DNA of 64,000 bases. It comes from Spirochaetota bacterium. Its GTDB lineage: Bacteria; Spirochaetota; UBA6919; CBDBPB01. Location of the stretch: assembly GCA_965208615.1 (NCBI GenBank), contig CBDBPB010000001.1, positions 256,001-320,000 of the forward strand, in the 5' to 3' direction. Positions 4,241-28,028 of the stretch are shown piece by piece. The notes beneath the pieces were generated by a model. The model was not told the DNA's origin and did no database searches. It saw only the letters and a list, made by a program, of their open reading frames with translations. Positions within the stretch are counted from its first letter, which is position 1; each line of letters begins with the position of its first letter. Position numbers and translations under genes: made by a program.

Positions 4241-4375
4241 ATTTCCTCCGTGAAATATCAATACAACATCTATAAAATCCTTTATGAGATTGACTATTTA
4301 ATATATTTTTCGACTAAATAAGTCATAAATTGACTTTTCAGCTAAAAATAATTTTTTTATTAAAATTGTTTTTTT

Positions 4376-5008: not shown

Positions 5009-5150
5009 AATTGATAGGGAACTTGGATTAGTTTATTTTATAAGACTATAAAATAACATATTTATTATTTATTGACAATTAATTTGATTTTAAAAAAAGT
5101 TTTCTTAATGTTATTATTAGGGACTATAGGGTTACGGTTATTTATTAATT

Positions 5151-8764: not shown

Positions 8765-9691
8765 TTAATATTGAGGCCTAAAAGCCACTGTAGTAAAACG
8801 AGAACTACTACTTTCCTTAAGATTAGAATTAAATGTCGTTGTACCTCCACTTGTCCTTTTAAAGATAAAAGGCAACTTACTTCCCTTACTTTTTGTAGCA
8901 ACCCATTTACCATTACCATAGGCAATATCACTAAAACTATCATCAGAATTATTATTATAAATGAGATCATTAGTATGCCTAAGACTTTGTTCAAAAAACG
9001 ATACAGTATTATTTTGGTTTGCAGAAATCCAAATATTTTCATTAACATTGCTCTTCTTGCCATAAGCTATACTAATAGCATTAGCATTTTTAACTTTTTT
9101 CCATTGATCTCCCTGACTAATTTTATATATAGCACTACCAACTACCAAAACCCATAACTTATTACCATAACTAACGCCAGTACCATTACTAATAGTAGTA
9201 TTACTAAGCAAGCTGTTAGAACTATCCCAACTATTAGGATTAGAAAAGCCGTATTTATGTATTCTATTACTAGCTAAAGCAATCCACTTACCCTTGCCAT
9301 CAGTGGCCAGATCAGCAAAACTAGTACCATTTATTTTAAAATTATTTGTCCAATCAGTACCATCGTCATTTGAACTAAAAAGCTGTCCATTACTTGTCAG
9401 TGCAAGCCAATGACAGCCTTTATTTGTTGCACTTACTTTGCCGTATGCAAGACCAACAAAACTACCACCTGTAGTATTAGGTATATTTACTTCATCCCAA
9501 TTTTCAGCATCAATTGACTTATAAGCCTTATCAGCCGATAGCATAAGCCATAAATTATCACTCTTACAGTTATAATTGCCATTACCATTACCATTACCAT
9601 TACCTAAAAAGCCACTCCCAAGACTAATACCTTGAGAACCACAACTAATAAAGAGTAACAGTACTAAAAAATAAAACATCTCTTTTTTCAT
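8765..9691 (-). CDS. BNR/Asp-box beta-propeller lipoprotein, array copy 1
   Basis: Signal peptide MKKEMFYFLVLLLFISC (lipobox FISC); S.DDG..W Asp-box; repeated IAYGNG.WVA blades; C-terminal FTTVAFRP. Confidence 0.85.
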   Translation of the reverse strand: MKKEMFYFLVLLLFISCGSQGISLGSGFLGNGNGNGNGNYNCKSDNLWLMLSADKAYKSIDAENWDEVNIPNTTGGSFVGLAYGKVSATNKGCHWLALTSNGQLFSSNDDGTDWTNNFKINGTSFADLATDGKGKWIALASNRIHKYGFSNPNSWDSSNSLLSNTTISNGTGVSYGNKLWVLVVGSAIYKISQGDQWKKVKNANAISIAYGKKSNVNENIWISANQNNTVSFFEQSLRHTNDLIYNNNSDDSFSDIAYGNGKWVATKSKGSKLPFIFKRTSGGTTTFNSNLKESSSSRFTTVAFRPQY

Positions 9692-9810
9692 GACTAACCT
9701 TAAAATTAATGTAAAATAAGTATAATAAATTGATAAGATTAAGTCAAGTTAATCTGTTATAATAGGTAGCGCCTATATAGCTTTATAGTTGAAATTAACT
9801 AATTAAAAAA

Positions 9811-10737
9811 TTAAGGCCTAAATCCCACTGTAGTAAATCTAGGAGTAGGAGTAGGAGTAGGAGTAGGAGTTGTTGGAATACCAGTAGGCTCTATAGCAGT
9901 ATATTCTACAATATCAGTATTAGTATTAGGATTAGTAACAAGAGTAGTACTAAAGGTAAAAGGCAGGGCGCTTGCACTTCTTACGGCAACCCATACACCA
10001 TTACCATAAGCTATATCAATAAAACCAGTATTATTATTAGTATCATTACTATTAATAAAAACATCAAGACCCTTTTCAAGAAACCAAAGAAAACCCTCGC
10101 TTGTCACAGCAGTCCATATATTTTTACCATAAGCTATGTTATTAGTGTGCGTTCCAACTGATATAGGACCTTCCCAGGTATTTCCATCATTACTTTTATA
10201 TATATCACCATTATTAAAAACCAAACCCCATAAACCATTACCATAACTAATACCACTAGCTTGAGTATTATTACCAGGTAACTGACTATTAGTCCAATTA
10301 TTAGGATTAGAAAAGCCGTATTTATGTATTCTATTACTAGCTAAAGCAATCCACTTACCATTGCCATCAGTGGCCAGGTCTTCAAAACTAGCATTAATTA
10401 CATTACCATTACTTACCCAGTTAGCGCCATCGTCAGTTGAACTAAAAAAATGCCCATTCCTTGTCAGTGCAAGCCAATGATAATTATTACTTTTTGTATT
10501 TTCTTTGCCGTATGCAAGGCCAACAAATCTACCACCTGTAGTACTAGTTATATTAGATGGTTTTACTTCAGACCAGCTTTCACCATTAGTTGACTTATAA
10601 GCCTTATCAGCCGATAGCATAAGCCATAAACCACCACTCTTACCATTGCCTAAAAAGCCGTTTCCAAGACTAATACCTTGAGAACCACAACTAATAAAGA
10701 GCAACAGTACTAAAAAACAAAACATCTCTTTTTTCAT
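9811..10737 (-). CDS. Beta-propeller lipoprotein, array copy 2
   Basis: Same N-terminus and blade motifs; (PT)n tract from AGGAGT x5 at 9841-9870. Confidence 0.87.
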   Translation of the reverse strand: MKKEMFCFLVLLLFISCGSQGISLGNGFLGNGKSGGLWLMLSADKAYKSTNGESWSEVKPSNITSTTGGRFVGLAYGKENTKSNNYHWLALTRNGHFFSSTDDGANWVSNGNVINASFEDLATDGNGKWIALASNRIHKYGFSNPNNWTNSQLPGNNTQASGISYGNGLWGLVFNNGDIYKSNDGNTWEGPISVGTHTNNIAYGKNIWTAVTSEGFLWFLEKGLDVFINSNDTNNNTGFIDIAYGNGVWVAVRSASALPFTFSTTLVTNPNTNTDIVEYTAIEPTGIPTTPTPTPTPTPRFTTVGFRP

Positions 10738-10857
10738 GACTAACCTTAAAATTAATGTAAAATAAATATAATAAATTTATAAGATTAAGTCAAGTTAATT
10801 TGTTACAATAGGTTAGCGCCTATATAGCTTTATAGTTGAAATTAACTAATTAAAAAA

Positions 10858-11835
10858 TTAAGGCCTAAAAGCCACTGTAGTAAATCTAGGAGTAGGAGTA
10901 GGAGTTGTTGGAATGCCAGTAGGGGTTTTAGGTTCATATGTTACAGTATTAGGATTAGTAACAAGAGTAGTACTAAAGATAATAGGCGGAGCGCTTGCAC
11001 TTCTTACGGCAACCCATTTACCATTACCATAAGCTATATCAATAAAAATAACAGTACGATTAGTACGATTATTATTAATAAAAGCCTCATTCAGCTTAAG
11101 ACCCTTTTTAAAAAACCAAAGCATACCCCCGCTTGTCACAACAGTCCATATATTTTTACCATAAACTATGCTATTAACGTCTCCAAGTCCTCCTCCAACA
11201 GATCCCCAGCTATTATTATTATTTTTAGGTTCCCAAGCTGTACCATTAACAATATTACTTTTATCTATATGACCATCAGTATTATTCTGACTAGTAAGCA
11301 AAGCCCATAAACCATTACCATAAGCAATACCCTTACCTTGAGTACCACCAGTAGGGAACTCACTATCAGTCCACTTATTAGGATTAGAAAAGCCGTATTT
11401 ATGTATTCTATTACTAGCTAAAGCAATCCAATTACCCTTGCCATCAGTGGCCAGATCTTCAAAACTACCTGTAACTACTGTACCATCACTATAAGTTACT
11501 CGACCCTTTCTTTTCCAAGTAGCACCATCGTCAGTTGAGCTAAAAAGATGACCATCATTCCTTGTCAGTGCAAGCCAATGATAATTATTACTTTTTGTAT
11601 TTTCTTTGCCGTATGCAAGGCCAACAAAATTACCAGTTGTATTAGATATATTAGATGGTTTTACTTCATACCAATTTTCAGCATTAGTTGACTTATAAGC
11701 CTTATCAGCCGATAGCATAAGCCATAAACCACCACTCTTACCATTGCCTAAAAAGCCGTTTCCAAGACTAATACCTTGAGAACCACAACTAATAAAGAGC
11801 AACAGTACTAAAAAACAAAACATCTCTTTTTTCAT
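10858..11835 (-). CDS. Beta-propeller lipoprotein, array copy 3
   Basis: Same lipobox and YGNG.W blade repeats. Confidence 0.87.
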   Translation of the reverse strand: MKKEMFCFLVLLLFISCGSQGISLGNGFLGNGKSGGLWLMLSADKAYKSTNAENWYEVKPSNISNTTGNFVGLAYGKENTKSNNYHWLALTRNDGHLFSSTDDGATWKRKGRVTYSDGTVVTGSFEDLATDGKGNWIALASNRIHKYGFSNPNKWTDSEFPTGGTQGKGIAYGNGLWALLTSQNNTDGHIDKSNIVNGTAWEPKNNNNSWGSVGGGLGDVNSIVYGKNIWTVVTSGGMLWFFKKGLKLNEAFINNNRTNRTVIFIDIAYGNGKWVAVRSASAPPIIFSTTLVTNPNTVTYEPKTPTGIPTTPTPTPRFTTVAFRP

Positions 11836-11955
11836 GACTAACCTTAAAATTAATGTAAAATAAATATAATAAATTTATAAGATTAAGTCAAGTTAATTTG
11901 TTACAATAGGTTAGCGCCTATATAGTTTTATAGTTGAAATTAACTAATTAAAAAA

Positions 11956-12894
11956 TTAAGGCCTAAAAGCCACTGTAGTAAATCTATGAGTAGGAGTTGT
12001 TGGAATACCAGTAGGCACTATAGCAGTATATTCTACAGTATTAGGATTAGTAACAAGAGTAGCCTTAAAGATAATAGGCGGAGTGCTTGCACTTCTTACG
12101 GCAACCCATTTACCATTACCATAAGCTATATCAGTAAAATCAGTATTATCATTAGTATCATTAGTATAATTACTATTAATAGTAGAACCAAGATCCTTGC
12201 TCAAAAACGAAAGCCCACCATTGTTTTGCACAGCAGTCCATATATCATTACCATAAGCTATGCTATTAGTGGTTCCAGGTGATATAGGACCTTCCCAGGT
12301 AGTTCCATCACTACTTTTATATATATCACCATTATTAAAAACCAAACCCCATAAACCATTACCATAACTAATACCACTAGCTCGACTAGTATTACGGGGT
12401 AACCGACTATCAGGCCAATTATTAGAATTAGAATTAGAAAAGCCGTATTTATGTATTCTATTACTAGCTAAAGCAATCCAATTACCCTTGCCATCAGTGG
12501 CCAGATCTTCAAAACTACCTGAAACTACTGTACCATCATTATTAGTTACTCGACCCTTTCTTTTCCAAGTAGCACCATCGTCAGTTGAGCTAAAAAGATA
12601 ACCATCATTCCTTGTCAGTGCAAGCCAATGATAATTATTACTTGTTGTATTTTCTTTGCCGTATGCAAGGCCAACAAAATTACCTGTAGTACTAGTTATA
12701 TCACGTATACTTGCTTCAGACCAGCTTTCACCATTAGTTGACTTATAAGCCTTATCAGCCGATAGCATAAGCCATAAACCACCACTCTTATTGCCATTTT
12801 TATTACCTAAAAAGCCACTCCCAAGACTAATACCTTGAGAACCACAACTAATAAAGAGTAACAGTACTAAAAAACAAAACATCTCTTTTTTCAT
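11956..12894 (-). CDS. Beta-propeller lipoprotein, array copy 4
   Basis: Same lipobox and YGNG.W blade repeats. Confidence 0.87.
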   Translation of the reverse strand: MKKEMFCFLVLLLFISCGSQGISLGSGFLGNKNGNKSGGLWLMLSADKAYKSTNGESWSEASIRDITSTTGNFVGLAYGKENTTSNNYHWLALTRNDGYLFSSTDDGATWKRKGRVTNNDGTVVSGSFEDLATDGKGNWIALASNRIHKYGFSNSNSNNWPDSRLPRNTSRASGISYGNGLWGLVFNNGDIYKSSDGTTWEGPISPGTTNSIAYGNDIWTAVQNNGGLSFLSKDLGSTINSNYTNDTNDNTDFTDIAYGNGKWVAVRSASTPPIIFKATLVTNPNTVEYTAIVPTGIPTTPTHRFTTVAFRP

Positions 12895-13007
12895 GACAAT
12901 CCCTAATTTAATGTAGAATACATATAATAAATTTATAAGATTAAGTCAAGTTAACTTATTATGATAGATTATTGTTTATATAGCTTTAAAATTAACTAAT
13001 TAAAAAA

Positions 13008-13925
13008 TTAAGGCCTAAATCCCACTACAACAAGATTATTACTATTACTATATTGGACTTCTTTAATAAAACTTAAATTATTACTATAGTCAATAGTAAA
13101 TCCAATAACCTTAGTACTTCTATTGTCATTATCACGAAAAATAGCAACCCATATACCATTACCATAAACAATATTAAGAAGCAAGCCCACATTTTCTACA
13201 ATATTTATTTTTTTACCCTGAGTATCCAAATTATTAAATATGAGTATACCAGTTTTATTTTGGATACTATTAGAATTAACTATAGCAACCCATTTACTAT
13301 TACCATAAGCCATCTTAGTAACCCTAGAAGAAAATACTCTATGATCATTCCAGCTATCTCCATTATGACTTGTATATAATAAATAATTAGTATTATTAGT
13401 AAGCAAAGCCCATAAACCATTACCATAAGCAATACCAGTAACTTCAGTACCATTAAAAATAACACCATCAAGGTAGTTCCATTCACTACCAAAAGAGTAT
13501 TTGTATAGCCTACTATCAAAAGTTACAGCAATCCAATTACCCTTGCCATCAGTGGCCAGATCAGTAAAATTATTAATATTATTAGCTATTTGACCCTTAC
13601 TTGTCCAAGTAGCACCATCGTCAGTTGAGCTAAAAAGCTGTCCATTCCTTGTCAGTGCAAGCCAATGATAGTTATTACTTGTTGTATTTACTTTGCCGTA
13701 TGCAAGACCAACAAATCTACCACCTGTAGTACTAGATATATTAAGCATGCTTACTTCAGACCAGCTTTCAGCATTAGTTAACTTATAAGCCTTATCAGCC
13801 GATAGCATAAGCCATAAACCACCACTCTTACCATTGCCTAAAAAGCCGTTTCCAAGACTAATACCTTGAGAACCACAACTAATAAAGAGTAACAGTACTA
13901 AAAAACAAAACATCTCTTTTTTCAT
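13008..13925 (-). CDS. Beta-propeller lipoprotein, array copy 5
   Basis: Same N-terminal half; divergent C-terminal half ending VVVGFRP. Confidence 0.87.
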   Translation of the reverse strand: MKKEMFCFLVLLLFISCGSQGISLGNGFLGNGKSGGLWLMLSADKAYKLTNAESWSEVSMLNISSTTGGRFVGLAYGKVNTTSNNYHWLALTRNGQLFSSTDDGATWTSKGQIANNINNFTDLATDGKGNWIAVTFDSRLYKYSFGSEWNYLDGVIFNGTEVTGIAYGNGLWALLTNNTNYLLYTSHNGDSWNDHRVFSSRVTKMAYGNSKWVAIVNSNSIQNKTGILIFNNLDTQGKKINIVENVGLLLNIVYGNGIWVAIFRDNDNRSTKVIGFTIDYSNNLSFIKEVQYSNSNNLVVVGFRP

Positions 13926-14941: not shown

Positions 14942-15413
14942 GTCAATATAATATATTTAGAGTATTAAATCAAATTATTTACTATGAAAGGAGTTATAAG
15001 ATGTTATAGTAGGTTATTATAAAGAGGTTCTAGACTTATTAATTTTTATAGATATAAACTGTTCTATTATTTTAATTCCCATAGAAAGCATATAATGTCA
15101 ACATAGAATATTCTAATAATCCGCCCTATCCTTTTATAGAACGGCAAATCAGTTATCACTTCGTAAAGGTCTATAATTCCTAGTCTCAATAAGGGATTCT
15201 TAATAGCTCTCGAAGTGATGACTACTTGCATAAAAAGTGATATTTTGTGTTCATTGCTAAGGCATTTAAGCAGTACTTAAAGAGCATAAAGGGATAACCT
15301 GCTTGATACAAGAAAATAACTTTTCCATGAATATTTTAACTTTCCTGTTTCACAAAGAAATCTAAAATCTATCTACCTTTACGTTATATGTCTTCTTTTT
15401 GCCTTGTATGACT
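14942..15413 (+). mobile_element. MITE-like element, copy A (one terminal repeat retained)
   Basis: Inverted homologue of about 25296-25835; ends in TTTTGCCTTGTATGACT (to 15413); lacks the segment lying between GATGACAT direct repeats in copy B. Confidence 0.7.
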
Positions 15414-15568
15414 CGTCATAACTCTATCATAAAATGATAACTAAATTATTAAACAATATCACTCTAAATAAACTAAATTATTATTAAAAAAAAATACCTT
15501 CTTATTACGTTTGATAGAACATCTGCTAACTTATCACACCTCTTTAACAACCTTTCTATAACTTGATA

Positions 15569-15963
15569 ATCTGTATTTTTTAAGTTTTAGATATATAAAC
15601 TAGCTTAGAATACTTTTGGTTTACACTAATAGAACAATTAGTAACACAAAGTCTAAACGTAAATGTTTATATTTATCCCCATTGTCAATAACCTCAACTT
15701 GATGAACTGACTGTTATCCTTTAGTTATAAGCATTATAAATAGCCCCCGCTTTCTTACTTTTTCCTCTTTAAAACTGTCAGCAATGCTTTTCTTAAAAAT
15801 TACCGTATTATCTAAAATCTAGCTTGCTATTAACTATAGCTTTTAGATGAAAAATTATTATAACATAATTCCTAAATAAATCTTATCTGTATTTTTTTAA
15901 GTTTAAAAAAGATAAATTACCTTAGAATACTTTTGATCTGCACTAATAGAACTATTAGTAACA
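15569..15963 (+). repeat. Two family-2 repeat copies (15569-15646 and 15837-15963)
   Basis: Both end in CACTAATAGAAC(A/T)ATTAGTAACA; 15837-15963 is nearly identical to 5880-6006. Confidence 0.85.
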
Positions 15964-16011
15964 AGGTTAGCGCCTATATAGCTTTATAGTTGAAATTAAC
16001 TAATTAAAAAA

Positions 16012-16853
16012 TTAAGGCCTAAATCCCACTGTAGTAAAATGATTACTAGTAAACTGAAATTGAGCATTATTACTCTGTATCTGATTGATCTAGCATCAAC
16101 AGTAAAGCTAAAAAGCGATCCATTGTCTCCAACAGCAACCCATTTACCATTACCATAAGCTATATCATTAAAACCAGAATAACCAGTATGTCGAATATGA
16201 CTTCCTGTGGCAATATCCGTGAATACCATTATATTACCCCCGCCTACACCAACCCACTTGCCATCACCATAAGCTATATTATCCAAATCAGTAATTCTTA
16301 CACTATATGTCCAATTAGCCCCATTATCAATACTTGTATATATATCCCCATTATCACGAACCAAAACCCACATACTACTACCATAAGAAACCCCAAGAAA
16401 CCTAGCACCTGGTATTGGAGCAATAGGATTCCAACCACCCCCAGAGTTTACATATACACTATTACTATCACCAACCGCAATCCATGTATTATTAGCATAA
16501 CCCATATCATTAAAGACGGCACTTGTTATTGCACTAGTATATGTCCAACTAGAGCCGTTGTCAGTTGACTTAAGAAGTTCACCAGAACTGCTTACTACAA
16601 GCCAATGAGATTGTCCATATGCTAAACCAGAAAAAACAATATTATTACTATCAGATCGATAATACCATTTTATACCATCTTCTGAGGTATAAACATCCCT
16701 ATTCCCTGTTAGAGCTATCCAATGTACGTTACTATTATCTATACCATTGCCTAAAAAACCAGTCCCAAAACTAATGCCTTTAGGTCCACAATTAATAAAA
16801 ATTAAAAGTATTAGTATTATTAATATTAAAATCTTAAATAGTCTTCTTTTCAT
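16012..16853 (-). pseudogene. Beta-propeller lipoprotein, array copy 7, with a frameshift near the C-terminus
   Basis: Lipobox FINC and YG.G.WV blades; the family C-terminus FTTVGFRP-stop (stop at 16012-16014) is in another frame; shift near 16090. Confidence 0.75.
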
Positions 16854-16962
16854 AAATAAACTCTCTATAACTATACTCTATTTCTAGTATAATAAGTATA
16901 GCTAACTATAGCAATATAAACTTTTCTGACTGCCTATTATAAAAACATATATTTATAAAATA

Positions 16963-17860
16963 CTAAGGTTTAAAAGCTACTGTAGTAAAATTATCAGCCG
17001 TAGAAGTATTGATAATTTTTGAATCTATAACGCTACCCTTAAAAGTAAAAGAAACTATAGCTCCACTATTACCTACAGCAACCCATTTACCATTACCATA
17101 AGCAATATCATTTAAATCGTTATTACTAATAGTTTTATAAGCAACTCTAGTAGTGCTACTAGGCTTATCAAGCTTATAAATAAAACCTTTACTCCCTGAA
17201 GCAATCCATAAATTGTTACCACTAGCAATACTTTTTACATCTTTTAAAAAAATTATTATTACGAACTCCCACCTTTCCAGTCTCATATATAATGCCATCG
17301 CCAACTGCAACCAATTTACTGCTACTATATGTAAGCCCAGTAAATATTCTTTTGTCAAAAAGCCTTTTATGGATAGTTCTCCAGCTACCTTTTATATAAC
17401 TCGATACTCTTATAGTTACATCATCACCTGCTATAGCCCACCTATTATTACCATAGGCAATATCTCTAACTCCTTTTCCAGTCAGTTTACGAATGTATGT
17501 CCAACTTTTACCGTTTAAAGATGAAAAAAAACTACTTTCATTAGTTACCACAACCCATCTATAACCATTACTAGTTAAACCATATGCCACACCAGCAAAA
17601 TCATTGTTAATTATATTACCGCTATCATCCTTCATAGTGCCCTTGTCATCCCAAGCTATCCCATCAACTGAGGTATAAATATTACCTTTTTTCGTTAATG
17701 CTAACCAGTTAAAACTACTTTCATCATAATTAGCTTTACTACTAAGAAAACCCATCTCACAATCATTTGAACCACTACTAGCACAAAGACCTTTACTTTG
17801 ACAAGAGAACAAAACAAAAACTAAAATCAATAATGAAAAACTAAATATTTGCCTATACAT
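16963..17860 (-). pseudogene. Divergent beta-propeller lipoprotein, array copy 8, frameshifted in a T7 tract
   Basis: Lipobox LFSC; removing one base from A7 at 17246-17252 joins ...RNNNF to LKDVKSIASGNNLW...FTTVAFKP. Confidence 0.78.
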
Positions 17861-18106
17861 AATAAATACCTCTATATTTAACTTAAGATGTTCAAACTAT
17901 TTATACTCATATTATTAAACTTATACGTTACCTTCATACAAATCCCTCTACTTATATTATATAGCTAAATGATTTAAAATCTATAATAGTTTATAGCATT
18001 CTTAATTGTCTTAGTCACCCTAAAAAACAAAATAAAAATAAAATCCTGACTCATAATGTCTTGAGATTAACCGATTATTATTAAATCACATATACAAGGT
18101 AAAATA

Positions 18107-19612
18107 ATGACCCTACACAAAATGTTTTTAAAATCAGCACTAAAACATAAAAATATTATAGCTATATACGATCAAGCAACAGGCAAAAATATAACCTATA
18201 AAAAACTTATACTCCTATCAATCATATTCGCAGACAAAATTAAACACTACAAAAATCAAAACATCGGTATAATGATCCCAACATCAGCAGGGGCAATTAT
18301 ATCCACATTGGCAACCCTAATAACAGGTAAAACTCCAGTTATGATAAACTATTCAATGAGTGCAATAAAAAGCTCTGTCTATGCACAAAATAAGTGTCAA
18401 TTTAATACAATATTAACCTCCAAAAAATTACTGGATAAGCTTTCTATTAAACCCATTAAAGATATGGTATTCCTAGAGGATATCGTAGCTAACCTTAGTA
18501 TAATAGACAAAATAAAAGGACTTATTAAATCTATATTCCCCCATACTATCTACAACAAAGGCAATGAAAATGATAACGCCGTAATACTCTTTACCTCAGG
18601 TAGTGAGAAAGACCCTAAGGCTGTCCCCCTTAGTCATAAAAATATTATCCACAACATAAACGGCATAAATATGGTGTTTGACTTTAAAAATAATGAAATC
18701 TTTATGTCTATTTTACCTCTCTTCCACATATTCGGACTGACAACCTCCTTCTGGCTACCCATAACTAAGGGATATAGCTTAATAGCTCAACCTAATCCCC
18801 TTGAATATCAACATGTATCCGATAATATAAAAAACTATAATGCCACCTGTATAACCGCTACACCAACGTTTTTTAGGGGTTATCTTAAAAAATCACACAA
18901 AGATGACTTTAAATCCCTTAGAATAGCAATATCAGGAGGAGATAAGTTACCAAAAGCCCTTGTAGACGAGTTCTTTGAAAAGCATAACGTTATGATCTAT
19001 GAAGGATACGGTACCACAGAGACTAGTCCGGTTATATCAAGTAATACAGCCCATTATAATAAACCAGGTAGTATAGGTAAGCCTTTACCAAACGTTAAAG
19101 TCAAAATAGTAAACGTAGATAATAATAATGAACTATCCACAAATAAAATTGGTAAAATCATAGTAAAAGGCGATTTAGTCATGAGGGGGTATATAGATGA
19201 ACCAAATATAACGATAAAAGACGGCTGGTACGATACAGGGGATATGGGACTAATAGACGAAGACGGCTTTTTATGGCACAAAGGTAGACTAAAACGATTC
19301 GTAAAAATAGGCGGCGAAAGAGTATCCCTTATGGCTGTCGAAGAAGAAGCTATAAAAGTAATGCCAGATAACTCATTATGCTGTGCAGTAGAAATACCAA
19401 ACAAAGCTAAGGGTGCTGAAATAATATTAGCCATAACTAAAAAAGTAGACCAAAAACAAATAATAAAAACTATAAAAAACGCCATAGGATCAATAGCCAT
19501 ACCCAAAAAGTTTATATATTTAGACGAACTGCCAATAATGAGTAATGGAAAAATCGACTTTAGACTAACTACTAAAATATGTCATGAAAAACTCTATGAA
19601 AAAGCTAAATAA
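18107..19612 (+). CDS. AMP-binding enzyme, stand-alone Aas-type acyl-ACP synthetase domain
   Basis: FTSGSEKDPK.V.LSH.N, YEGYGTTETSP, WYDTGD, GRLKRFVKIGGE.VSL, NGKIDF. Confidence 0.9.
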   Translation: MTLHKMFLKSALKHKNIIAIYDQATGKNITYKKLILLSIIFADKIKHYKNQNIGIMIPTSAGAIISTLATLITGKTPVMINYSMSAIKSSVYAQNKCQFNTILTSKKLLDKLSIKPIKDMVFLEDIVANLSIIDKIKGLIKSIFPHTIYNKGNENDNAVILFTSGSEKDPKAVPLSHKNIIHNINGINMVFDFKNNEIFMSILPLFHIFGLTTSFWLPITKGYSLIAQPNPLEYQHVSDNIKNYNATCITATPTFFRGYLKKSHKDDFKSLRIAISGGDKLPKALVDEFFEKHNVMIYEGYGTTETSPVISSNTAHYNKPGSIGKPLPNVKVKIVNVDNNNELSTNKIGKIIVKGDLVMRGYIDEPNITIKDGWYDTGDMGLIDEDGFLWHKGRLKRFVKIGGERVSLMAVEEEAIKVMPDNSLCCAVEIPNKAKGAEIILAITKKVDQKQIIKTIKNAIGSIAIPKKFIYLDELPIMSNGKIDFRLTTKICHEKLYEKAK

Positions 19613-19674
19613 CTAAGAAAATATATTATTAATTATCAACCCATCAAGTATATTAACAATAATATAAAATTACC

Positions 19675-19703
19675 TTGACTATGATAGCAAATAAATATAA
19701 ATT
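19675..19703 (+). promoter_or_regulatory. Sigma70-like promoter of the eL13-like gene
   Basis: TTGACT-17nt-TAAATT; AAAGGA RBS at 19733-19738. Confidence 0.5.
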
Positions 19704-19745
19704 TGATGTTCTAATCATATATAACATTAATTAAAGGATATTATT

Positions 19746-19946
19746 ATGAAAAAGAAAATAGATCGCTCAATTGTTAAAGTCAAAAAGAAGCATGGACTAA
19801 GACAAGGTAGAGGGTTTAGTATAAAAGAACTATCCGAAGCAGGTATTACTCCATATCACGCTAAGATTAGTGGAATAGCCATAGATAAAAGACGTAAGTC
19901 TAATAATCCTTCTAATGTTGAGGAAATTAAAAAGCTTAAAAAATAA
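19746..19946 (+). CDS. rpl13e: Archaeal-type ribosomal protein L13e (eL13) homologue
   Basis: RQGRGFSIKELSEAG...AK..GIAIDKRRKS.N..NVEEIK matches the eL13 signature R.GRGF(S/T)..EL..AG...A...GI.VD.RR.....NV..LK; short archaeal-like length. Confidence 0.85.
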   Translation: MKKKIDRSIVKVKKKHGLRQGRGFSIKELSEAGITPYHAKISGIAIDKRRKSNNPSNVEEIKKLKK

Positions 19947-19994
19947 GCTAAGTTCATACATTTATACGCAATCTAAAACAAATATTGAAATACT

Positions 19995-20153
19995 ATATGA
20001 AAACTATATTGCTCCAAAAACTCCTAATATGACTGGTAAGAGCAAAGGTAAAACTTATAGAGGTTGACGATAGACCCTTAGTATTCAAAGTTAAGGTGTT
20101 TGACAGTGTAGAGCTTATTAGTTAAGGGTATGCACGAAAGATTTATAATTTAA
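19995..20153 (+). pseudogene. Remnant of an FlK-like (hotdog) thioesterase, C-terminal part
   Basis: VRAKVKLIEVDDRPLVFKVKVFDSVELIS (from 20036), a +1 shift, then KGMHERFII-stop; typical of the FlK thioesterase C-terminus; 5' part lost. Confidence 0.7.
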
Positions 20154-20708
20154 TTATAGGGTAGGCAAGTCTCTCTTACCATCATAACAAGGTATACCAC
20201 CATTAACATAGGCAATCCACGTTTTTCTATACTTATCAGCCATATTACTAATACCGCTAATCTCTTTATCACTAAGGCTACGCTTAACAATAGCCGGTGA
20301 ACCCATAATAAGAGAGTTAGGTTCAAAAGTCTTACCCATCGGTATAATAGAACCAGCCGCAATAATAGAGTTATCAGATATAACCGATCCATCCATAATA
20401 ATACTCCCCATGCCTATTAAACAATTATCCCCAATACGACAGGCGTGTATAACTACACTATGTCCAACAGTAACATTATTACCAACAACAGTACTATAGT
20501 TATCAGCAACGTGGATCACCGTATTATCCTGGATATTAGTATTTTCACCAATGGTAATGTCGTTAATATCCCCACGTAAAACAGCGTTGTACCATATACT
20601 AACACCCTTTTTTAAAATCACTCTTCCAATAACCTTTGCACCATTAGCAATAAAGCTATCCTCGTGTATGGATGGTACTCTATTAGTAAAATCCATAATA
20701 ACTCCCAT
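20154..20708 (-). CDS. Gamma carbonic anhydrase family (hexapeptide-repeat) protein
   Basis: WYNAVLRGD, NIQDN.VIH, VTVGH...H.C.IGD.CLIGMGS. Confidence 0.93.
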   Translation of the reverse strand: MGVIMDFTNRVPSIHEDSFIANGAKVIGRVILKKGVSIWYNAVLRGDINDITIGENTNIQDNTVIHVADNYSTVVGNNVTVGHSVVIHACRIGDNCLIGMGSIIMDGSVISDNSIIAAGSIIPMGKTFEPNSLIMGSPAIVKRSLSDKEISGISNMADKYRKTWIAYVNGGIPCYDGKRDLPTL

Positions 20709-20738
20709 TAAGAATTAATAGTACGCCATATAAACAGC

Positions 20739-23168
20739 CTAGTTAGGATTATCCTCCTTTTCTGTACTGGATACAGCTACAACAAAATCATTATCCTTAA
20801 CATTAACAAGCCTAACACCAGATGCAGTCCTACCAAAACTTGATATACCCTTTACAGCAGTCTTAATAACCATACCCTGTGAAGTTATAATAACAACTTC
20901 TTCGTCAAGAGTAACGGCATGTACAGTAGCCACATCACCAGTTTTTTTATTTACACCAAGATATATTTGTCCAGCAGTACCCCTACCGTGAGCCTGTAAA
21001 GTACTAAACCTAGTTAATTTACCATAACCGTTTTTACTAACAATAAGTAAACGCTTATTACTAGATACACGCTCCATACCAATAACCTCATTACCTTTTT
21101 TCATACGTATACCAATAACTCCCCTTGCGGCCCTACCCATTTCTCTAATATCATTTTCCCTAAGCCTAAGGGCAAGACCCTTTTTAGTACAAAGAACTAT
21201 ATCAGATTTTCCATTACTAAGAACTGCAGATATAAGTAAATCGCCCTCATCAAGATTCATAGCCTTAATACCCCTTGTACGAGCATTAACAAAATCCCTA
21301 ATAACGCATCTTTTTATAATACCGTTTTTAGTAACTAATATAATAGGCCTATTTTCATTATAGTCCTTAACGGGTACATAAGCCTTAACAACCTCACCCT
21401 CATTAAGCTGTAATAATATTTTAATACTCCTGCCTCTTGTTGTACGACCACTTTCTGGTATTTCGTGTACTTTAATATAAAAAGTACGACCATAATTAGT
21501 GAAAAACATTATATAGTCGTGAGTGGATGCCACAAGTAAATGTTCAATATAGTCATCCTGTTTTACGTTTGCACCGGATACACCCACACCACCACGTTTT
21601 TGCTTTTTATACGTGCTAACAGGTAATCGCTTTATATAACCACCAATGGATATGGTTACAACATTATCCTCTTTAACAATTAAGTCCTCAGTCTCAAATG
21701 AGTCTAATGATGGAACAATTTTAGTACATCTTTTAGTTTTATATTTTGACTTCATTTCTAAAAGTTCATCTTTCATAATGCGGTATTGAATGTCATCACT
21801 ATCTAGAATGGCCTTTAGCTCTTTTATTAGCATTAACAGCTTATCATATTCCTCTTGGATTTTACCATGCTCTAATGCAGTTAAACGCTGTAAACGCATA
21901 TCAAGGATAGCCTGAGCCTGTATTTCAGTAAGGCTAAAATTATTAATAAGTCCGTTACGAGCAATATTAGCATTATCACTAGCCCTAATAAGTGCTATTA
22001 TTTTATCAATATTGGCTAAAGCAATAAGAAGGCCTTCTAATATATGGGCACGTTTTTCAGCTTTATTAAGGTCAAAGTTAGTTCTGCGTATTATTACTTC
22101 TTTTCTATGAGCAACATAATTAGTTATAACTTCTTTTAAATTGAGAACTTTTGGCTGATTGTCCACAAGAGCAAGCATAATAATACCAAATACACTTTGT
22201 AAGCTAGTATGAGAGTATAACAGATTTAATATTATTTTTGTATTAGCTCCTTTTTTAATCTCTATAACAATACGCATACCGGTTCTGTCGGACTCATCTC
22301 TTATATCACTGATCCCCTCTATTTTTTTATCCTTAACCAAGGATGCAATTTTAATAATCAAATCAGCCTTATTGACCTGATAAGGTATCTCAGTAATGAT
22401 TAAAGCTTCTCTATCGTTTTTAAAGATCTCCACATCCACTTTAGCTCTAACAGTTACCTTCCCTCTTCCAGTTAGGTATGCAGAAGAAATACCTTCCTTT
22501 CCATAAATTATACCATAAGTAGGAAAGTCAGGTCCCTTAATATAAGTCATAAGTTTTTCAACGAGAATATCCTTATCATCAATGACAGCACAAACACCAT
22601 CAATAACCTCAGCCAAGTTATGGGGAGGTATATTAGTAGCCATTCCCACAGCAATTCCAGTACTACCATTAACTAATAAGTTAGGCACTCCAGCAGGCAG
22701 TACAACAGGCTCATGCAAGCTATCATCAAAGTTTAACTGGGTGTTTACAGTTTCTTTTTCTATGTCCCTTAGGAGTTCCATAGAGTAGTTGGTCATTCGA
22801 GCTTCAGTATACCTCATAGCGGCAGGCATATCACCGTCTACAGAGCCGTAATTACCCTGTCCATCTATTAATAAGCTTCTCATAGAAAAGGTTTGTCCCA
22901 TTCTAACAAGAGCATTATATACAGCCGCATCACCATGAGGATGAAATTTACCTAAAACTTCTCCGACTATTCTAGCCGATTTTTTATAAGCTTTACTTGG
23001 TATAATGCCCATTTCATTCATTGCATATAGTATACGTCGGTGTACAGGTTTTAAGCCGTCTCTAACATCAGGCAAAGCTCTACTTATTATGACGCTCATG
23101 GCATAAGTTATATAAGAGTCTTTCATTTCGACTTCAATTGGTATTAGTATTACATTTCCGTTAGACAA
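20739..23168 (-). CDS. gyrA: DNA gyrase subunit A
   Basis: [30 protein letters not shown] active site, GyrA-box QKRGGVG, C-terminal pinwheel repeats; TTG start. Confidence 0.98.
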
Positions 23169-23323
23169 TATTTTACTCCAATTTATATAAGTTACAAAGG
23201 GTAGAAGTTAATAGAGATAAATATAATTAAATTAGACTAAACTGAAAATAAATTAATGTTTTTGATATTGATGTTATAAAGGTATTTCGATGTAGACCTT
23301 GTATAGGCATTTATATAAGTTAT

Positions 23324-23390
23324 GTTACTGGTTGTTCTAATAGTGTATATCAAAAAGACTTTAGGGAACTTATATATCTAAAAACTAAAA
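23324..23390 (-). repeat. Diverged inverted copy of family-2 repeat
   Basis: Reverse complement tagatatataagttccctaaagtctttttgatatacactattagaacaaccagtaac resembles 15588-15645. Confidence 0.65.
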
Positions 23391-23494
23391 TAATTAGTAA
23401 GACCCCAGCCCAATGCTTTTTATAAAATGTAAATAAGAAATTGCAGTATGGAATGAATACTAAATTCTTAAAAGGTATGTCTATTTTTATCGAA

Positions 23495-23728
23495 TTATTT
23501 TATTATATCCCTTACTACTAACATTAGTATACCAACTAGTATGCTCGTTATCATTGCAACTATTATTTTCATCATACCTTTTAGTTCTGATATATCTTGC
23601 TTTAACTCAAGCTTGACATCCTTAATCTCGTTTTTAAGCTTCTCTACTTTGACATCAGTAATCTCAGCTTCGTGTATCTGGCTAGTAACTTCTCTTTTTA
23701 TCTCTTGCTTTAACTCTTCACTTATCAT
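23495..23728 (-). CDS. Small coiled-coil protein with C-terminal TM anchor (Bdr/DUF1640-like architecture)
   Basis: Heptad K/E-rich region, then IIVAMITSILVGILMLVV; GAGG RBS. Confidence 0.7.
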   Translation of the reverse strand: MISEELKQEIKREVTSQIHEAEITDVKVEKLKNEIKDVKLELKQDISELKGMMKIIVAMITSILVGILMLVVRDIIK

Positions 23729-23787
23729 CTTTGCCTCTTCTGGAAATGAATACTAAATTCTTAAGAGGTATATCTATTTTTATCGAA

Positions 23788-24075
23788 TTATTTTATTATA
23801 TCCCTTACTACTAACATTAATATACCAATTAGTATGCTTGTTATCATTGCAATTATTATTTTCATCATACCTTTTAGTTCTGATACGTCTTGCTTAACAC
23901 TTGATATTTTATTGTCGAGCTTATTTTCTATTGCTTTTAATTCTACTCTTAGTCTTGATTCAACTCCAGTTATCTCATTTTTAAGCTTTTCTACTTTAAT
24001 GTCAGTGATCTCAGCTTCGTGGATTTGGTTAGTAACTTCTCTTTTTATCTCTTGCTTTAACTCTTCACTTATTAT
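23788..24075 (-). pseudogene. Tandem paralogue of 23495-23728, 18 aa longer, start codon ATG changed to ATA
   Basis: Open 96-codon frame IISEELKQEIKREVTNQIHEAEITDIK...GMMKIIIAMITSILIGILMLVVRDIIK; lies within the duplication 23452-23744 / 23745-24090. Confidence 0.75.
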
Positions 24076-24337
24076 CTTTGCCTCTTCTGAAAATGCTTGC
24101 GGCTTTATAGTGAGAGTGTAGATACTCTTCTATTGCAAGCTTGATTAGCATTTAATGAATTCTTCCTTTTTGAGTTTATTTATGAAGTATAACATAAGTT
24201 GCCTTGTGTCTTTATCGATTACGACTATCTTTTATTTGTCTATTTTGTTAATTACACCTCTAACTTAATTACTATATTGTAAATATAGTATAATCTGTTA
24301 ATTTAGTCAATTCTATGTTATTAATTGTTCTAGTAGT

Positions 24338-24819
24338 TAGGTACGGTTGAAACAAAGATATAAAAATATAATTTATTGGCCCCACAGCTAGTTTCAATTC
24401 CTTATAGGTACGGTTAAAACAACCAGCCTAAAAATCTATGACGCTTTTGAATCTTGTGTTTCAATTCCTTATAGGTACGGTTAAAACTACAAGCATATAG
24501 AGATAGATTAAGGTATAGATATTCGTTTCAATTCCTTATAGGTACGGTTAAAACCCAGTTTCTTTAATTGTAATGCCCATGTTGAAAATCTGTTTCAATT
24601 CCTTATAGGTACGGTTAAAACCATTATCGATTTTTGAGATCAGTGATTCTATTCTACGTTTCAATTCCTTATAGGTACGGTTAAAACTTGATTGCATTCG
24701 CATTCACATTCATCATCATCGTTAGTTTCAATTCCTTATAGGTACGGTTAAAACGAGTTAGTCACCGCCGTTATAACTAGCTAGCCTCTGTTTCAATTCC
24801 TTATAGGTACGGTTAAAAC
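24338..24819 (-). CRISPR. Orphan CRISPR array, type I-B-like repeat: 7 full repeats, 1 truncated trailer repeat, 7 spacers of 35-37 nt
   Basis: 30-nt repeat GTTTCAATTCCTTATAGGTACGGTTAAAAC at 24391, 24458, 24525, 24592, 24658, 24725 and 24790; partial at 24338-24353; minus-strand reading ends in the ATTGAAAC handle. Confidence 0.98.
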
Positions 24820-24960
24820 CCATTTACAACTTATAATATAACAATAAGTTATAATATACATTTCTTAAATTTATTCCCAAACCTCCGATAGTGTATTTTA
24901 AATAATTAATAACAAATAATAGCTAACACCATAGGTTTAAATAAAACTATTTTTTAAAAA
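24820..24960 (-). promoter_or_regulatory. CRISPR leader
   Basis: AT-rich, on the side opposite the degenerate trailer repeat; TTATAATATA direct repeat (24831, 24849) and AAACCT...AGGTTT inverted motif. Confidence 0.7.
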
Positions 24961-25051
24961 AAAAGCTTTCAATTCCTTAACGGTTAATACCACTCCTTTA
25001 GAAGTTTTCCCTAAAAGAAGAACTTTCAATGCTCACTTGTCCTGAATGTGC
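24957..25051 (-). ncRNA. Candidate crRNA-like RNA (pseudo-repeat / 32-nt spacer / pseudo-repeat)
   Basis: Minus strand: GCACATTCAGGACAAGTGAGC-ATTGAAAG | TTCTTCTTTTAGGGAAAACTTCTAAAGGAGTG | GTATTAACCGT-TAAGGAATTGAAAG | C then T-tract. Confidence 0.6.
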
Positions 25052-25057
25052 ATTTAT

Positions 25058-25086
25058 AATATAACATTAGGGGTGTAAAAAAGCAA
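25058..25086 (-). promoter_or_regulatory. Sigma70 promoter driving the candidate crRNA-like RNA
   Basis: Minus strand TTGCTT-17nt-TATATT with TG extended -10. Confidence 0.55.
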
Positions 25087-25290
25087 ACCCTTTATAAAAA
25101 ATAATGGAGCGGGGAGTACAAACAGATTTTCTTTTGATTTCTCTTATCTTATTATATTATAACTATTTAAGACCTATAAAACCATAAGCCTTAGCATTTT
25201 TCTTTCATCCAAGTTTTGTCAGACTTAATTTGCGAAATTATAAACGAGTATTTTAAATACTTTACTTTATATTTACTTTTTGCGTTTACC

Positions 25291-25869
25291 ATTTTTCGTA
25301 CAGGGCAAAGATGCAAGATGACATTTTATGATAATTTAATGGCTAAGAAGCTTCATATAAACGATGACATATAACGTAAAGTAGATATATTTTAGATGCC
25401 TTTGTAGAACAAGAAAGTTAAAATATTGATGAGAAAGTTATTTCCTTGTATCAAGCAGGTTATCCTTGCATACTCTTTAAGTGCTGTCTATTTGAGTTAG
25501 CAATTAACACAAAATATCACTTTTTATGCAAGTAGTCATCACTTCGAGAGCTATTAAGAATCCCTTACTGAGACTAAGAATTATACACCTTTATTAAGTG
25601 TTAAGGAATTTGCTGTTCCATAAAGACTTAAAAGGGATTATTAGAATATTATATATTGACTTTATATGTAACTTTCTATGGAAATTAAAAATAATAAAAC
25701 AGTTTATACCTATAAAAATTCATAAGCTTAGAACCTCTCTACAATAACCTAATAAAAACTTTGATAACAACATAAACTTCCCCTTTAAATAATAGCCCTT
25801 TAACACTCTCATCTCTCTTTAAAAGTTATATTGACTTTACTATTCCTTTTGCCTTGTACGACTAAAAAT
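25291..25869 (-). mobile_element. MITE-like element, copy B, with terminal inverted repeats
   Basis: Left ATTTTTCGTACAGGGCAAAG (25291-25310) and right TTTTGCCTTGTACGACTAAAAAT (25847-25869) are imperfect inverted repeats; interior is non-coding and homologous to 14942-15413. Confidence 0.72.
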
Positions 25870-25964
25870 AAGTGAATTATGATCCAAATTTCTTAATATA
25901 TTAATCTTGCTATATAAACTTTTGTTACTCTTTTTCTATAACCTATGCTATATTTTAAAAAAAC

Positions 25965-26336
25965 ATGAGGCAATTTATGAAAAATGAAAAAAATAAACAA
26001 GAAAATCATAGACCATGGGGCTATTACGAAATCCTTTCCTCAAAAGAGGATCACAAGGTTAAAAGAATTATTGTCAAACCCAATAAACGTCTAAGCCTAC
26101 AAAAACATAAATACAGATCAGAACATTGGTACATCGTTAAAGGTAATGCCGTCGTTACCCTCAATAATAATAATATACCACTAAAAATCGGCAATGCAAT
26201 AGATATTCCAAAAGGTGCCGCTCATAGAATTAGTAACCACGATAATGAAAATCTTGTTTTTATCGAAATACAAACCGGAACCTACTTCGGTGAAGACGAT
26301 ATTGAACGTCTGGAAGACGACTTTGGACGTAATTAA
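25965..26336 (+). CDS. Cupin, mannose-6-phosphate isomerase type II C-terminal domain
   Basis: RPWGYY, KVKRI.V.P..RLSLQ.H..RSEHW, HRI.N, IEIQTGTYFGEDDI.RLEDDFGR. Confidence 0.93.
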   Translation: MRQFMKNEKNKQENHRPWGYYEILSSKEDHKVKRIIVKPNKRLSLQKHKYRSEHWYIVKGNAVVTLNNNNIPLKIGNAIDIPKGAAHRISNHDNENLVFIEIQTGTYFGEDDIERLEDDFGRN

Positions 26337-26483
26337 TTCATAAAACCTTTTATCCATAATAAAATAACTTTAATAAATTAACTTTTATAACTTTTTTAAG
26401 TTTTTTTTTAGCCACAAAAGCGTTATATTTACTACTAAGATTTTTTATTAACTATTAAGATAGCTTTTAACGGAGGGATCCCA

Positions 26484-28028
26484 ATGAGTTATATAGAATC
26501 CCTTCTTTCTTTAACTTCTCTATTAGTGATAATTACCGGTCTTGCTGTAGGTTATATAGTTCGGTTTTTAATAGAAGCAAAAACGATTAAAAGTGCCAAA
26601 AATCGAGCACGTCAACTTATTAGTAACGCTAAAAAAGGAATAGAAGTAAAAAAACGGGAGGCCATACTAGAAGGAAAAGACCAAATTATCCAAGAAAAAA
26701 AAGAATTCGAAAAAGAAAATAAAGAACGTCGTAATGAAATTCAAAAACTAGAACAGAGGATATTAAGGAAAGAAGAAAATCTTGAAAAAAGAATAGACTC
26801 AATAGAAAAAAAAGAAAAACACTTTGAACAAAAAAAACAAGAAATAATTTCAAAAGAAAAAAACTTAAATAAAAAAAAGGAGCATATTCAAAAACAACTT
26901 GAAACTATTGCTGAGCTTTCAAAAGATCAAGCTAAAGAAGTTATCATTGACCAAATAAGAGATGATACAGAAAAAGATGCTCAAAAACTAATTAGCAAAA
27001 TTGAACAAGATGCCAAAATAACCGCTGATAAAAAAGCTAAGGATATTATTATAACTTCTATACAAAGAATAGCTCCTGAAATCACTCAAGAAGCTAGTAT
27101 ATCATCGGTCTCTTTGCCAAATGACGAAATGAAAGGTAGAATAATTGGACGTGAAGGAAGAAATATTAGAGCTCTAGAAGTTACTACAGGAGTAGACATT
27201 ATTATTGATGATACTCCAGAAGCTATTATACTATCTTGCTTTGACCCAGTAAGACGAGAAAAAGCAAGAATTGCTATTGAACGCTTAATCTCTGATGGAA
27301 GAATACATCCCGCTCGAATCGAAGAAGTGGTCAAGAAGGTTAGCGACGAAATAGAAAATACAATATACGAAGAAGGAGAAAAAGCTTGCTTTGATCTCAA
27401 TATACGAGGTATATCTTATGAGCTACAAAAGTGCATTGGAAGACTTAAATACAGATATAGTTATGGACAAAATATTTTAAATCACTCAAAAGAAGTGGCT
27501 AGACTGTGTAGTCTTATGGCTTCTCAGATGAACGCTAATGTTGATAAATGCGTTAGAGGAGGACTCTTGCACGATATAGGAAAAGGTGTGGTAAATGGAG
27601 AGGGTGAACATGCTCGAATTGGTGCTGAAATCGCTCAAAAGTATGGAGAGGACAAAGTTGTGATTAATGCTATTATATCACATCATTTTGATATAGAACC
27701 TGCTTATATTGAATCCATAATCGTTCAAACAGGTGATGCTATATCCGCTTCAAGACCAGGTGCAAGGCGAGAATCCTTCGATGACTATATTAAACGGTTA
27801 ACTAATCTAGAAAATATTGCTAATGATTTTCCAGGTGTAGAAAAGGCCTTTGCCATACAAGCTGGACGAGAACTAAGAATAATTGTTAATAATGATATTG
27901 TAAATGATATAGAGGCTAAAAAAACTGCTAAAAACATTGCAAAAAGAATAGAAGATGAAATGAGATATCCAGGACAAGTTAAAGTAGCTCTCATTAGAGA
28001 AACTAGGGTTATTGAATATGCAAGGTAG
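26484..28028 (+). CDS. rny: Ribonuclease Y
   Basis: N-terminal TM, coiled coil, KH domain (MKGRIIGREGRNIR), HD domain (LLHDIGK), DAISASRPGARRE, AIQAGRELR. Confidence 0.98.
   Translation: MSYIESLLSLTSLLVIITGLAVGYIVRFLIEAKTIKSAKNRARQLISNAKKGIEVKKREAILEGKDQIIQEKKEFEKENKERRNEIQKLEQRILRKEENLEKRIDSIEKKEKHFEQKKQEIISKEKNLNKKKEHIQKQLETIAELSKDQAKEVIIDQIRDDTEKDAQKLISKIEQDAKITADKKAKDIIITSIQRIAPEITQEASISSVSLPNDEMKGRIIGREGRNIRALEVTTGVDIIIDDTPEAIILSCFDPVRREKARIAIERLISDGRIHPARIEEVVKKVSDEIENTIYEEGEKACFDLNIRGISYELQKCIGRLKYRYSYGQNILNHSKEVARLCSLMASQMNANVDKCVRGGLLHDIGKGVVNGEGEHARIGAEIAQKYGEDKVVINAIISHHFDIEPAYIESIIVQTGDAISASRPGARRESFDDYIKRLTNLENIANDFPGVEKAFAIQAGRELRIIVNNDIVNDIEAKKTAKNIAKRIEDEMRYPGQVKVALIRETRVIEYAR

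Follow-up and report, generated by a model that had tools for sequence, protein, structure and literature searches.

A stand-alone copy of the ribosomal protein eL13 core encoded in a spirochaete chromosome

Three published accounts (PMC3353972; bioRxiv 10.1101/2021.01.31.429008; PMC9932298) regard ribosomal protein eL13 (L13e) as confined to archaea and eukaryotes, and their available portions mention no bacterial copy. A full-text search of the literature returned no paper on bacterial L13e or eL13; supplements, which lay outside that search, may list stray bacterial matches (those of PMC3353972 and 10.1101/2021.01.31.429008, as far as these sources were available). We describe here a gene for a stand-alone eL13 core in a 64,000-nucleotide stretch of the genome of a Spirochaetota bacterium (GenBank assembly GCA_965208615.1, contig CBDBPB010000001.1, positions 256,001 to 320,000), hereafter the window, which corresponds to G000:C1:256001-320000, G000 being the window's own genome. 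The initial annotation, made from the sequence without database searches, had read the gene as an archaeal/eukaryotic eL13 homologue acquired by inter-domain transfer, and left it undecided how many bacterial homologues the databases already held. They do hold some: two relatives already bear the title ‘ribosomal protein L13e [Spirochaetota bacterium]’ from the NCBI pipeline, which means that databases contain such sequences without their having been interpreted.

Among described proteins, the short archaeal eL13 (NCBIfam NF008914; 70–85 amino acids (aa), Nitrososphaerota and Thermoproteota) has the same domain and invariant residues and is similar in size and charge. It differs at the N-terminus, which is of the PIVRRKLKDGR type in archaea and K-x-DRS-x-V-x-VKK in the bacterial proteins, and in its setting: the host of the window gene is a bacterium with the full tested set of bacterial ribosomal proteins, and the bacterial loci have no ribosomal gene context, whereas the archaeal locus L061 adjoins, as judged by eye, an apparent L15e gene. 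The nearest non-bacterial relatives are archaeal proteins of 130–146 aa (‘Candidatus Pyrohabitans jungbluthii’, P0296-P0300, P0028 and P0303), which align over 80–83% of the query and possess a C-terminal helix-hairpin-helix extension (PF10391, PF14520, PF14229) that is missing from the bacterial proteins. The eukaryotic eL13 of the 60S subunit (approximately 200 aa) has long N- and C-terminal extensions contacting expansion segments (available part of PMC12368212), whereas the bacterial protein is the bare core, and its predicted fold superposes on that of the eukaryotic core with template-modelling (TM) scores over the query of 0.56–0.79. In a large uncharacterised family of bacterial proteins, one of them labelled Verrucomicrobia subdivision 3 / Limisphaerales, the same domain, with the same boundaries, is the tail of a beta-sandwich chain; here it stands alone. 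A precedent for an archaeal/eukaryotic ribosomal fold occurring as a small bacterial protein is the L7Ae/eL8/eL30 superfamily (YbxF and YlxQ of Bacillus), which has another fold, belongs to another family and is distributed widely among Firmicutes, not restricted to a single order.

The gene and its associated signals are as follows.

19675-19703, + strand: candidate sigma-70-like promoter, TTGACT-17 nt-TAAATT, 9/12 matches
19733-19738, + strand: Shine-Dalgarno-like AAAGGA, 7 nt 5' of the ATG, by direct reading of the sequence
19746-19946, + strand: stand-alone eL13-core coding sequence, stop codon included, 66 aa, from the list of open reading frames and Pfam PF01294
19782-19916, + strand: codons 13-57, match to the Ribosomal_L13e profile, with beta-hairpin, GRGFS turn, two short helices and D-x-RRKS loop

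The translated product, MKKKIDRSIVKVKKKHGLRQGRGFSIKELSEAGITPYHAKISGIAIDKRRKSNNPSNVEEIKKLKK, has an isoelectric point (pI) of 10.6, and Lys and Arg make up 20 of its 66 residues; the signature quoted in the initial annotation is present letter for letter. The gene thus encodes a stand-alone, strongly basic 66-residue copy of the conserved eL13 core. Its start codon at 19746 is supported by the N-terminus MKKKIDRS, which the window protein has in common with its relatives P0002 and P0023, and the start coordinate given earlier, 19675, is the first base of the promoter-like site and not of the coding sequence. As to the start signals annotated previously, the ribosome-binding site AAAGGA stands, while the sigma-70-type promoter is weak evidence, because a 1-kb scan yields nine such sites against 5.1 +/- 2.4 in shuffled sequence. 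The same kind of scan around the gene found no terminator-like site, the 226-nt spacer 3' of the gene has no predicted structure beyond chance (fold z 0.48), and an Rfam search of 15000-27000 at E <= 1 returned CRISPR repeats (clustered regularly interspaced short palindromic repeats), with no match around the eL13-core gene.

Three lines of evidence make the protein a member of the L13e domain family: its profile score, its signature residues and the fold predicted for it. The protein matches Pfam PF01294 (Ribosomal_L13e) with 45.8 bits against a gathering cut-off of 24.9 (E 8.1e-12), residues 13-57 aligning with profile positions 57-101 of 180, so that the HMMER check proposed in the initial annotation came out significant; a six-frame search of the genome with the same profile gave 42.8 bits at this locus. 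With the archaeal 50S L13e model NF008914, a score of 57.2 bits was obtained (E 9.7e-16; residues 13-65 on positions 23-75 of 83), and a phmmer search of PDB sequences returned, from E 5e-8 onwards, eL13 chains belonging to many different eukaryotic ribosomes. Judged by these scores, the L13e family matches lie far beyond chance. In an alignment of 56 archaeal and bacterial sequences, four columns are invariant (G23, S25, E28 and N57) and six more are at least 90% conserved (R19, G21, F24, D47, R49 and R50); all ten are in the window protein, which accordingly carries the core signature R-x-G-R-G-F-S, E, D-x-R-R, N.

The AlphaFold model, built with the 56 aligned sequences, had a mean confidence (predicted local distance difference test, pLDDT) of 85.6 and secondary structure elements E11-14, E17-20, H26-32, H36-42 and H55-65, that is, the beta-hairpin followed by three helices of the eL13 core, as far as a predicted model can tell. 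With this model Foldseek found 73 matches at E <= 1e-3, and the top 50 listed were all ribosome or pre-60S entries. The eL13 matches had TM scores over the query in the range given above, with approximately 0.74 on eL13 chains from solved 60S subunits, identities of 28–38% and a Foldseek probability of 1.00; the chains 4v7e_CL, 7cpu_LL, 9bh5_CL, 7qgg_M, 8azw_D and 3jag_L were identified as eL13 by their names in the phmmer PDB search. This fold match is not independent of the sequence match, because AlphaFold training included ribosome structures. Two other matches were examined and rejected. Legionella DotG/IcmE, the top match among PDB sequences, is a repeat protein whose score adds up many weak alignments with the GFS-x-x-EL-x-x-AG turn, and the Pfam family ‘Decapeptide’ reached 14.2 bits against a cut-off of 45; no single stretch passed. 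PADLOC returned no match for the window protein, and neither did a tblastn search against phages.

The genome G000 comprises 2,456,614 bp in 9 contigs, with a completeness of 99.4% and a contamination of 0.5%. The eL13-core gene has bacterial genes within 200 nt on either side, and the nearest annotated neighbours are the following.

17222-17860: 212-aa open reading frame with lipobox-like N-terminus, no Pfam match
18107-19612, + strand: AMP-binding ligase
20154-20708, - strand: hexapeptide-repeat protein
20739-23168, - strand: GyrA

Genes for RNase Y and a TRAP transporter are found at a greater distance. Of the bacterial neighbours named in the initial annotation, the ligase and GyrA were thus confirmed, and a lipobox-like N-terminus was found on the 212-aa frame. 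The host-like composition it reported was also borne out, the GC content of the gene being 0.32 against 0.325 for the window, with no break in the composition profile. Nor was there any sign of a chimeric join, since a 6263-bp Logan contig (run X1, an independent assembly of a public run, which may share reads with the assembly) spans 18500-21000 with 0 differences. Taken together, we consider it next to certain that the gene is homologous to eL13 and resides in a bacterial chromosome.

Copies of the gene are a feature of the window's order. Among 61 relatives searched with PF01294, matches were found in 3, namely G000 and both other genomes of the order (G001 and G002; 2/2), with 0/2 in the same class outside the order and 0/56 in the rest of the phylum. 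Across the phylum as a whole, 3/401 genomes matched and none of the 398 others sampled did, and the domain part of a second profile (790 positions, including the bacterial domain type) was matched in the same three genomes only. The distribution check suggested earlier was therefore positive for all three genomes of the order. The proteins of the other two genomes, of 69 and 72 aa, are 47% and 52% identical to that of the window, and their genes lie in unrelated neighbourhoods, one with MobA-like and MoaE genes and the other with a 4Fe-4S protein gene.

Further copies come from metagenomes. P0002 is 77% identical to the window protein, P0023/P0171 carry a Spirochaetota label, the L040 locus adjoins F1 ATP synthase genes and encodes a product to which NCBI gives the title ‘ribosomal protein L13e, partial [Spirochaetota bacterium]’, and additional spirochaete-type proteins are P0024-P0027, P0292, P0294 and P0295. 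The diverged copies of the order and of several metagenomic Spirochaetota span 47–77% identity; in composition every one matches the host that carries it, and no two share a neighbourhood. The N-terminus K-x-DRS-x-V-x-VKK is common to all spirochaete-type proteins. Twenty-four columns are invariant among 4 bacterial copies and 14 among 10, and the 14 include all invariant or nearly invariant columns of the 56-sequence alignment. In one metagenomic spirochaete-type L13e, P0137 (139 aa), an insertion of approximately 70 residues separates helix two from the VDKRRRS loop.

Trees place the spirochaete proteins inside the archaeal eL13 diversity. The closest proteins outside the bacterial relatives are Nitrososphaerota L13e (53–62% identity), and the best non-spirochaete matches to a profile of the bacterial copies are the archaeal L13e proteins with helix-hairpin-helix extension (130–146 aa, 55–62% identity). 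In a tree of 66 rows, all 11 spirochaete-type rows fell in one 13-row group (support 88/78), whose sister was Ca. Pyrohabitans jungbluthii of the Hydrothermarchaeota (89/92). Three long-form eukaryotic-type L13 sequences served as the outgroup; they belong to a set retrieved from metagenomes (L069, L076, L077, L080, L087-L089, L094 and L095) that appears fungal by the N-terminal HFRKDWQRRV region. As the alignment is limited to 69 columns and leaves the majority of the deep branchings open, the donor lineage is a lead only. An archaeal origin of the spirochaete gene is nonetheless well indicated, and we regard an ancient archaeal origin as likely; the distribution and the retained residues fit an old inter-domain transfer that was later retained.

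The domain is not isolated in bacteria. An exhaustive profile search of 1.84 billion proteins gave 1415 matches at E <= 1e-3, of which 115 reached E <= 1e-10, and the best 150 include proteins of approximately 300–1170 aa (mostly 550–870) that match Pfam solely through an L13e domain at their very C-terminal end. When the body of P0101, one such protein, served as the query, at least 308 clusters were found, on contigs of up to 6.8 Mb; the sole named member, P0080, belongs to Verrucomicrobia subdivision 3 / Limisphaerales. The motif G[RKF]G[FY]S occurs in the last 90 residues of 99 of the 128 long proteins examined, with variants in several of the other 29. The family (550–950 aa; P0101, P0034, P0080, P0106, P0153 and P0172-P0289, all outside the window) has an N-terminal amphipathic-looking segment, a disordered Glu/Lys/Pro-rich linker, a chain of beta-sandwich domains and the C-terminal L13e-like domain. 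AlphaFold predicted the body as a beta-sandwich chain with a pLDDT of 86.1, for which Foldseek gave generic matches only, with TM below 0.2 (titin, contactins, complement C3, S-layer proteins; Ig-like arrays). For seven long proteins, PADLOC found nothing in six and, in P0235, weak JetC matches to the coiled-coil part only; NCBIfam returned the L13e model below threshold for P0101, P0080, P0034, P0183, P0153 and P0250; an ESM Atlas look-up of P0101 gave no usable match, and a tblastn search of P0080 against plasmids gave none. Among individual members, P0153 has two copies of the body, P0250 has a PIN domain in addition, and P0194 ends in bacterial uS17 instead of the L13e-like tail, which may be a gene-calling fusion.

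When 18 of the fusion tails were added to the tree (72 columns), a 29-row group consisted of exactly the 11 spirochaete-type and the 18 fusion sequences (97/81), again with Ca. Pyrohabitans as the sister (80/77), suggesting that the spirochaete proteins and the fusion tails may share one bacterial origin. Given that an L13e-like domain ends a large bacterial family, the spirochaetes may have received their gene most immediately from another bacterium and not from an archaeon. Of the inter-domain transfer proposed in the initial annotation, what holds is a homologue in a bacterial chromosome that falls within archaeal eL13 diversity and has been kept in three of three genomes, and what is loosened is the direct step from an archaeon.

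The host ribosome is otherwise bacterial. Fifteen large-subunit proteins, all but uL30 bacteria-specific, were checked, bL12 lying outside the set, and in the three genomes of the order bL9, bL17, bL19, bL20, bL21, bL25, bL27, bL28, bL31, bL32, bL33, bL34, bL35 and bL36, as well as uL30, were present in all (3/3). Replacement of a bacterial ribosomal protein by the eL13 core is accordingly rejected, with 0/15 missing, and the earlier suggestion that bacterial proteins occupying the eL13 site might be absent found no support; since all checked proteins are present, any ribosomal role would be additive. The 23S ribosomal RNA (rRNA) of the host is bacterial (RF02541, 2742.5 bits) and not of archaeal/eukaryotic type. 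Its gene (L104, G000:C6:173100-176237) is 3138 nt in length, approximately 200 nt longer than in five other Spirochaetota, owing to extra blocks that span rRNA positions 1224-1350 and 1368-1476 together with a hairpin of 17 nt at 578-594; the position of the extra blocks presumably resembles that of the helix-45 intervening sequences of other bacteria.

The explanation we favour, at somewhat short of an even chance when taken as a whole with the function included, runs as follows. The gene probably entered bacteria by horizontal transfer from an archaeon with a Hydrothermarchaeota-like L13e and has probably been kept by selection since then, because all residues invariant across archaeal eL13 are retained. 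The protein would keep the eL13 fold and its conserved basic face and probably still bind structured RNA, the likeliest target being domain I of 23S rRNA, part of the universal rRNA core and the site of eL13 in yeast. According to the available part of PMC12825303, the yeast protein, Rpl13, contacts 25S rRNA around nt 78-110, and with it the assembly of domain I is complete. The bacterial protein might act as an extra, lineage-specific component of the 50S subunit or on 50S assembly intermediates, adding to the full bacterial set and replacing no member. What speaks for this is that the fold, the charge and every residue conserved in archaeal eL13 have been retained across deep bacterial divergence, and the likeliest single role for the protein would be to bind rRNA as an accessory component of the 50S subunit; ribosome association as such we put forward tentatively, as a possibility we would sooner doubt than assert.

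Several observations weigh against it. The complete tested set of bacterial large-subunit proteins leaves no vacancy for a new protein, no ribosomal-protein operon was found in or near the gene in four loci, and the aligned 23S rRNA of G000 shows no lineage-specific change near the 5' domain I (a statement on one genome, G001 and G002 being without an assembled 23S). The equivalog cut-off of 96 for NF008914 was not reached, so by the NCBI threshold the window protein would be a relative and not an equivalog of archaeal L13e. The domain also ends large non-ribosomal bacterial proteins, which means that it can serve outside a classical ribosomal protein. With 50 core columns (the beta-hairpin removed), the 29-row group was not recovered, with no rejection by the approximately unbiased test (p 0.24). 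PF01294 found 0/14 control genomes, a crenarchaeon among them, which makes the sensitivity of that search for short forms uncertain. Finally, the ratio of nonsynonymous to synonymous substitution rates (dN/dS) for four copies was undefined in 3 of 6 pairs and 0.21–0.55 in the remainder, and is uninformative because dS is saturated.

The strongest competitor, which we take as a serious if rather doubtful prospect, is that the eL13 fold has been repurposed off the ribosome as a small basic binder of RNA or DNA, which might serve as a regulator, as an RNA chaperone or in the nucleoid. The missing ribosomal gene context at the four loci, the complete bacterial set among the proteins checked, the occurrence of the domain at the end of large non-ribosomal proteins and the charge of the protein (pI 10.6, 20/66 Lys and Arg) would all suit such a role, as would the filing of eL13 under CATH topology 1.10.10, with the label ‘Arc repressor mutant, subunit A’ (in the available part of PMC11354259). 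However, all invariant or nearly invariant residues of archaeal eL13 have been kept after deep bacterial divergence, which is most easily explained if the ligand, a conserved rRNA site, were unchanged, and no alternative partner or conserved neighbour was found.

It is also conceivable, though improbable in our view, that the stand-alone gene arose by fission, as a C-terminal module that broke away from the beta-sandwich proteins and spread from one bacterium to another; its function would then follow that system. The exact 29-row clade of spirochaete-type and fusion domains (97/81) points that way; both kinds end just past the third helix and share a beta-strand motif on the N-terminal side of GRGFS, and the fusion protein P0034 ranks 13th for the spirochaete profile among the 1.84 billion proteins. 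Yet the body of the large family (approximately 500 residues, with conserved W, F, G and R columns and an LPRIWWR motif) was not found by profile in any of 401 Spirochaetota genomes, G000-G002 included; in these three, the 790-position profile matched at positions 722-788, the tail, and nowhere in the body. The window gene is thus not one half of a split gene. Moreover, the clade is lost with the 50 core columns, its internal order does not fix the direction (fusion or fission), and the nearest outgroup is archaeal in both trees.

That the gene might be a decaying or neutral passenger without function is very unlikely: although saturation precludes an estimate of dN/dS, every copy has an intact reading frame, 14 columns are invariant in 10 proteins at 47–77% identity, each copy has a start codon and that of the window a Shine-Dalgarno sequence, and the composition is fully host-like. 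The idea of an error in assembly or binning, by which a piece of archaeal DNA became part of a bacterial contig, has a negligible chance of being right and is already refuted so far as the present data go, for while mislabelling does occur (L035, below, has an L13e fusion in an archaeal-looking neighbourhood), here the GC content is host-like, bacterial genes flank the locus on both sides, the Logan contig bridges 18500-21000 without a difference, diverged copies occur in three genomes of the order and in further Spirochaetota metagenome-assembled genomes (MAGs), and genome contamination is 0.5%.

A contig of a ‘Ca. Deferrimicrobium sp.’ MAG, L035, the sole further record under a bacterial label in the genome scan, was considered as a second bacterial host and rejected, since by eye it looks like a mis-binned archaeal (Asgard-type) contig. 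Its positions 3944-5413 encode 489 aa, comprising an L13e domain at the N-terminus as well as helix-hairpin-helix repeats and a KEKPKEKV repeat, next to an apparent CDC48-type ATPase gene; the same protein is present on contig L078, and a similar one, L036, in a Helarchaeota MAG. Elsewhere in the window, two other features were observed.

8765-13925, - strand: five tandem open reading frames of 305–325 aa, two tested without a Pfam match, probably lineage-specific paralogous surface proteins or lipoproteins
24391-24819, + strand: CRISPR array, at least 7 repeats, each 30 nt long and spaced at a period of approximately 67 nt (Rfam CRISPR-DR2, 45 bits each)

Whatever its present role, a long-kept eL13 core in bacteria is a natural experiment on whether an archaeal ribosomal protein can find a site on bacterial rRNA. 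One reading of the sequence data, which we consider rather unlikely as it stands, is that in one order of Spirochaetota eL13 has joined a 50S subunit whose bacterial protein set is complete without it, the eL13 core being a portable ribosome-docking module in bacteria. If the 50S subunit does carry eL13, this would be the first known bacterial ribosome with a protein thought to be archaea/eukaryote-specific, and if the binding is true, the protein shell of the ribosome would be exchangeable between domains of life. In Verrucomicrobia-like bacteria, the module fused to beta-sandwich proteins could tether or decorate ribosomes, and its fused form in hundreds of large bacterial proteins widens the question to what the module recognises.

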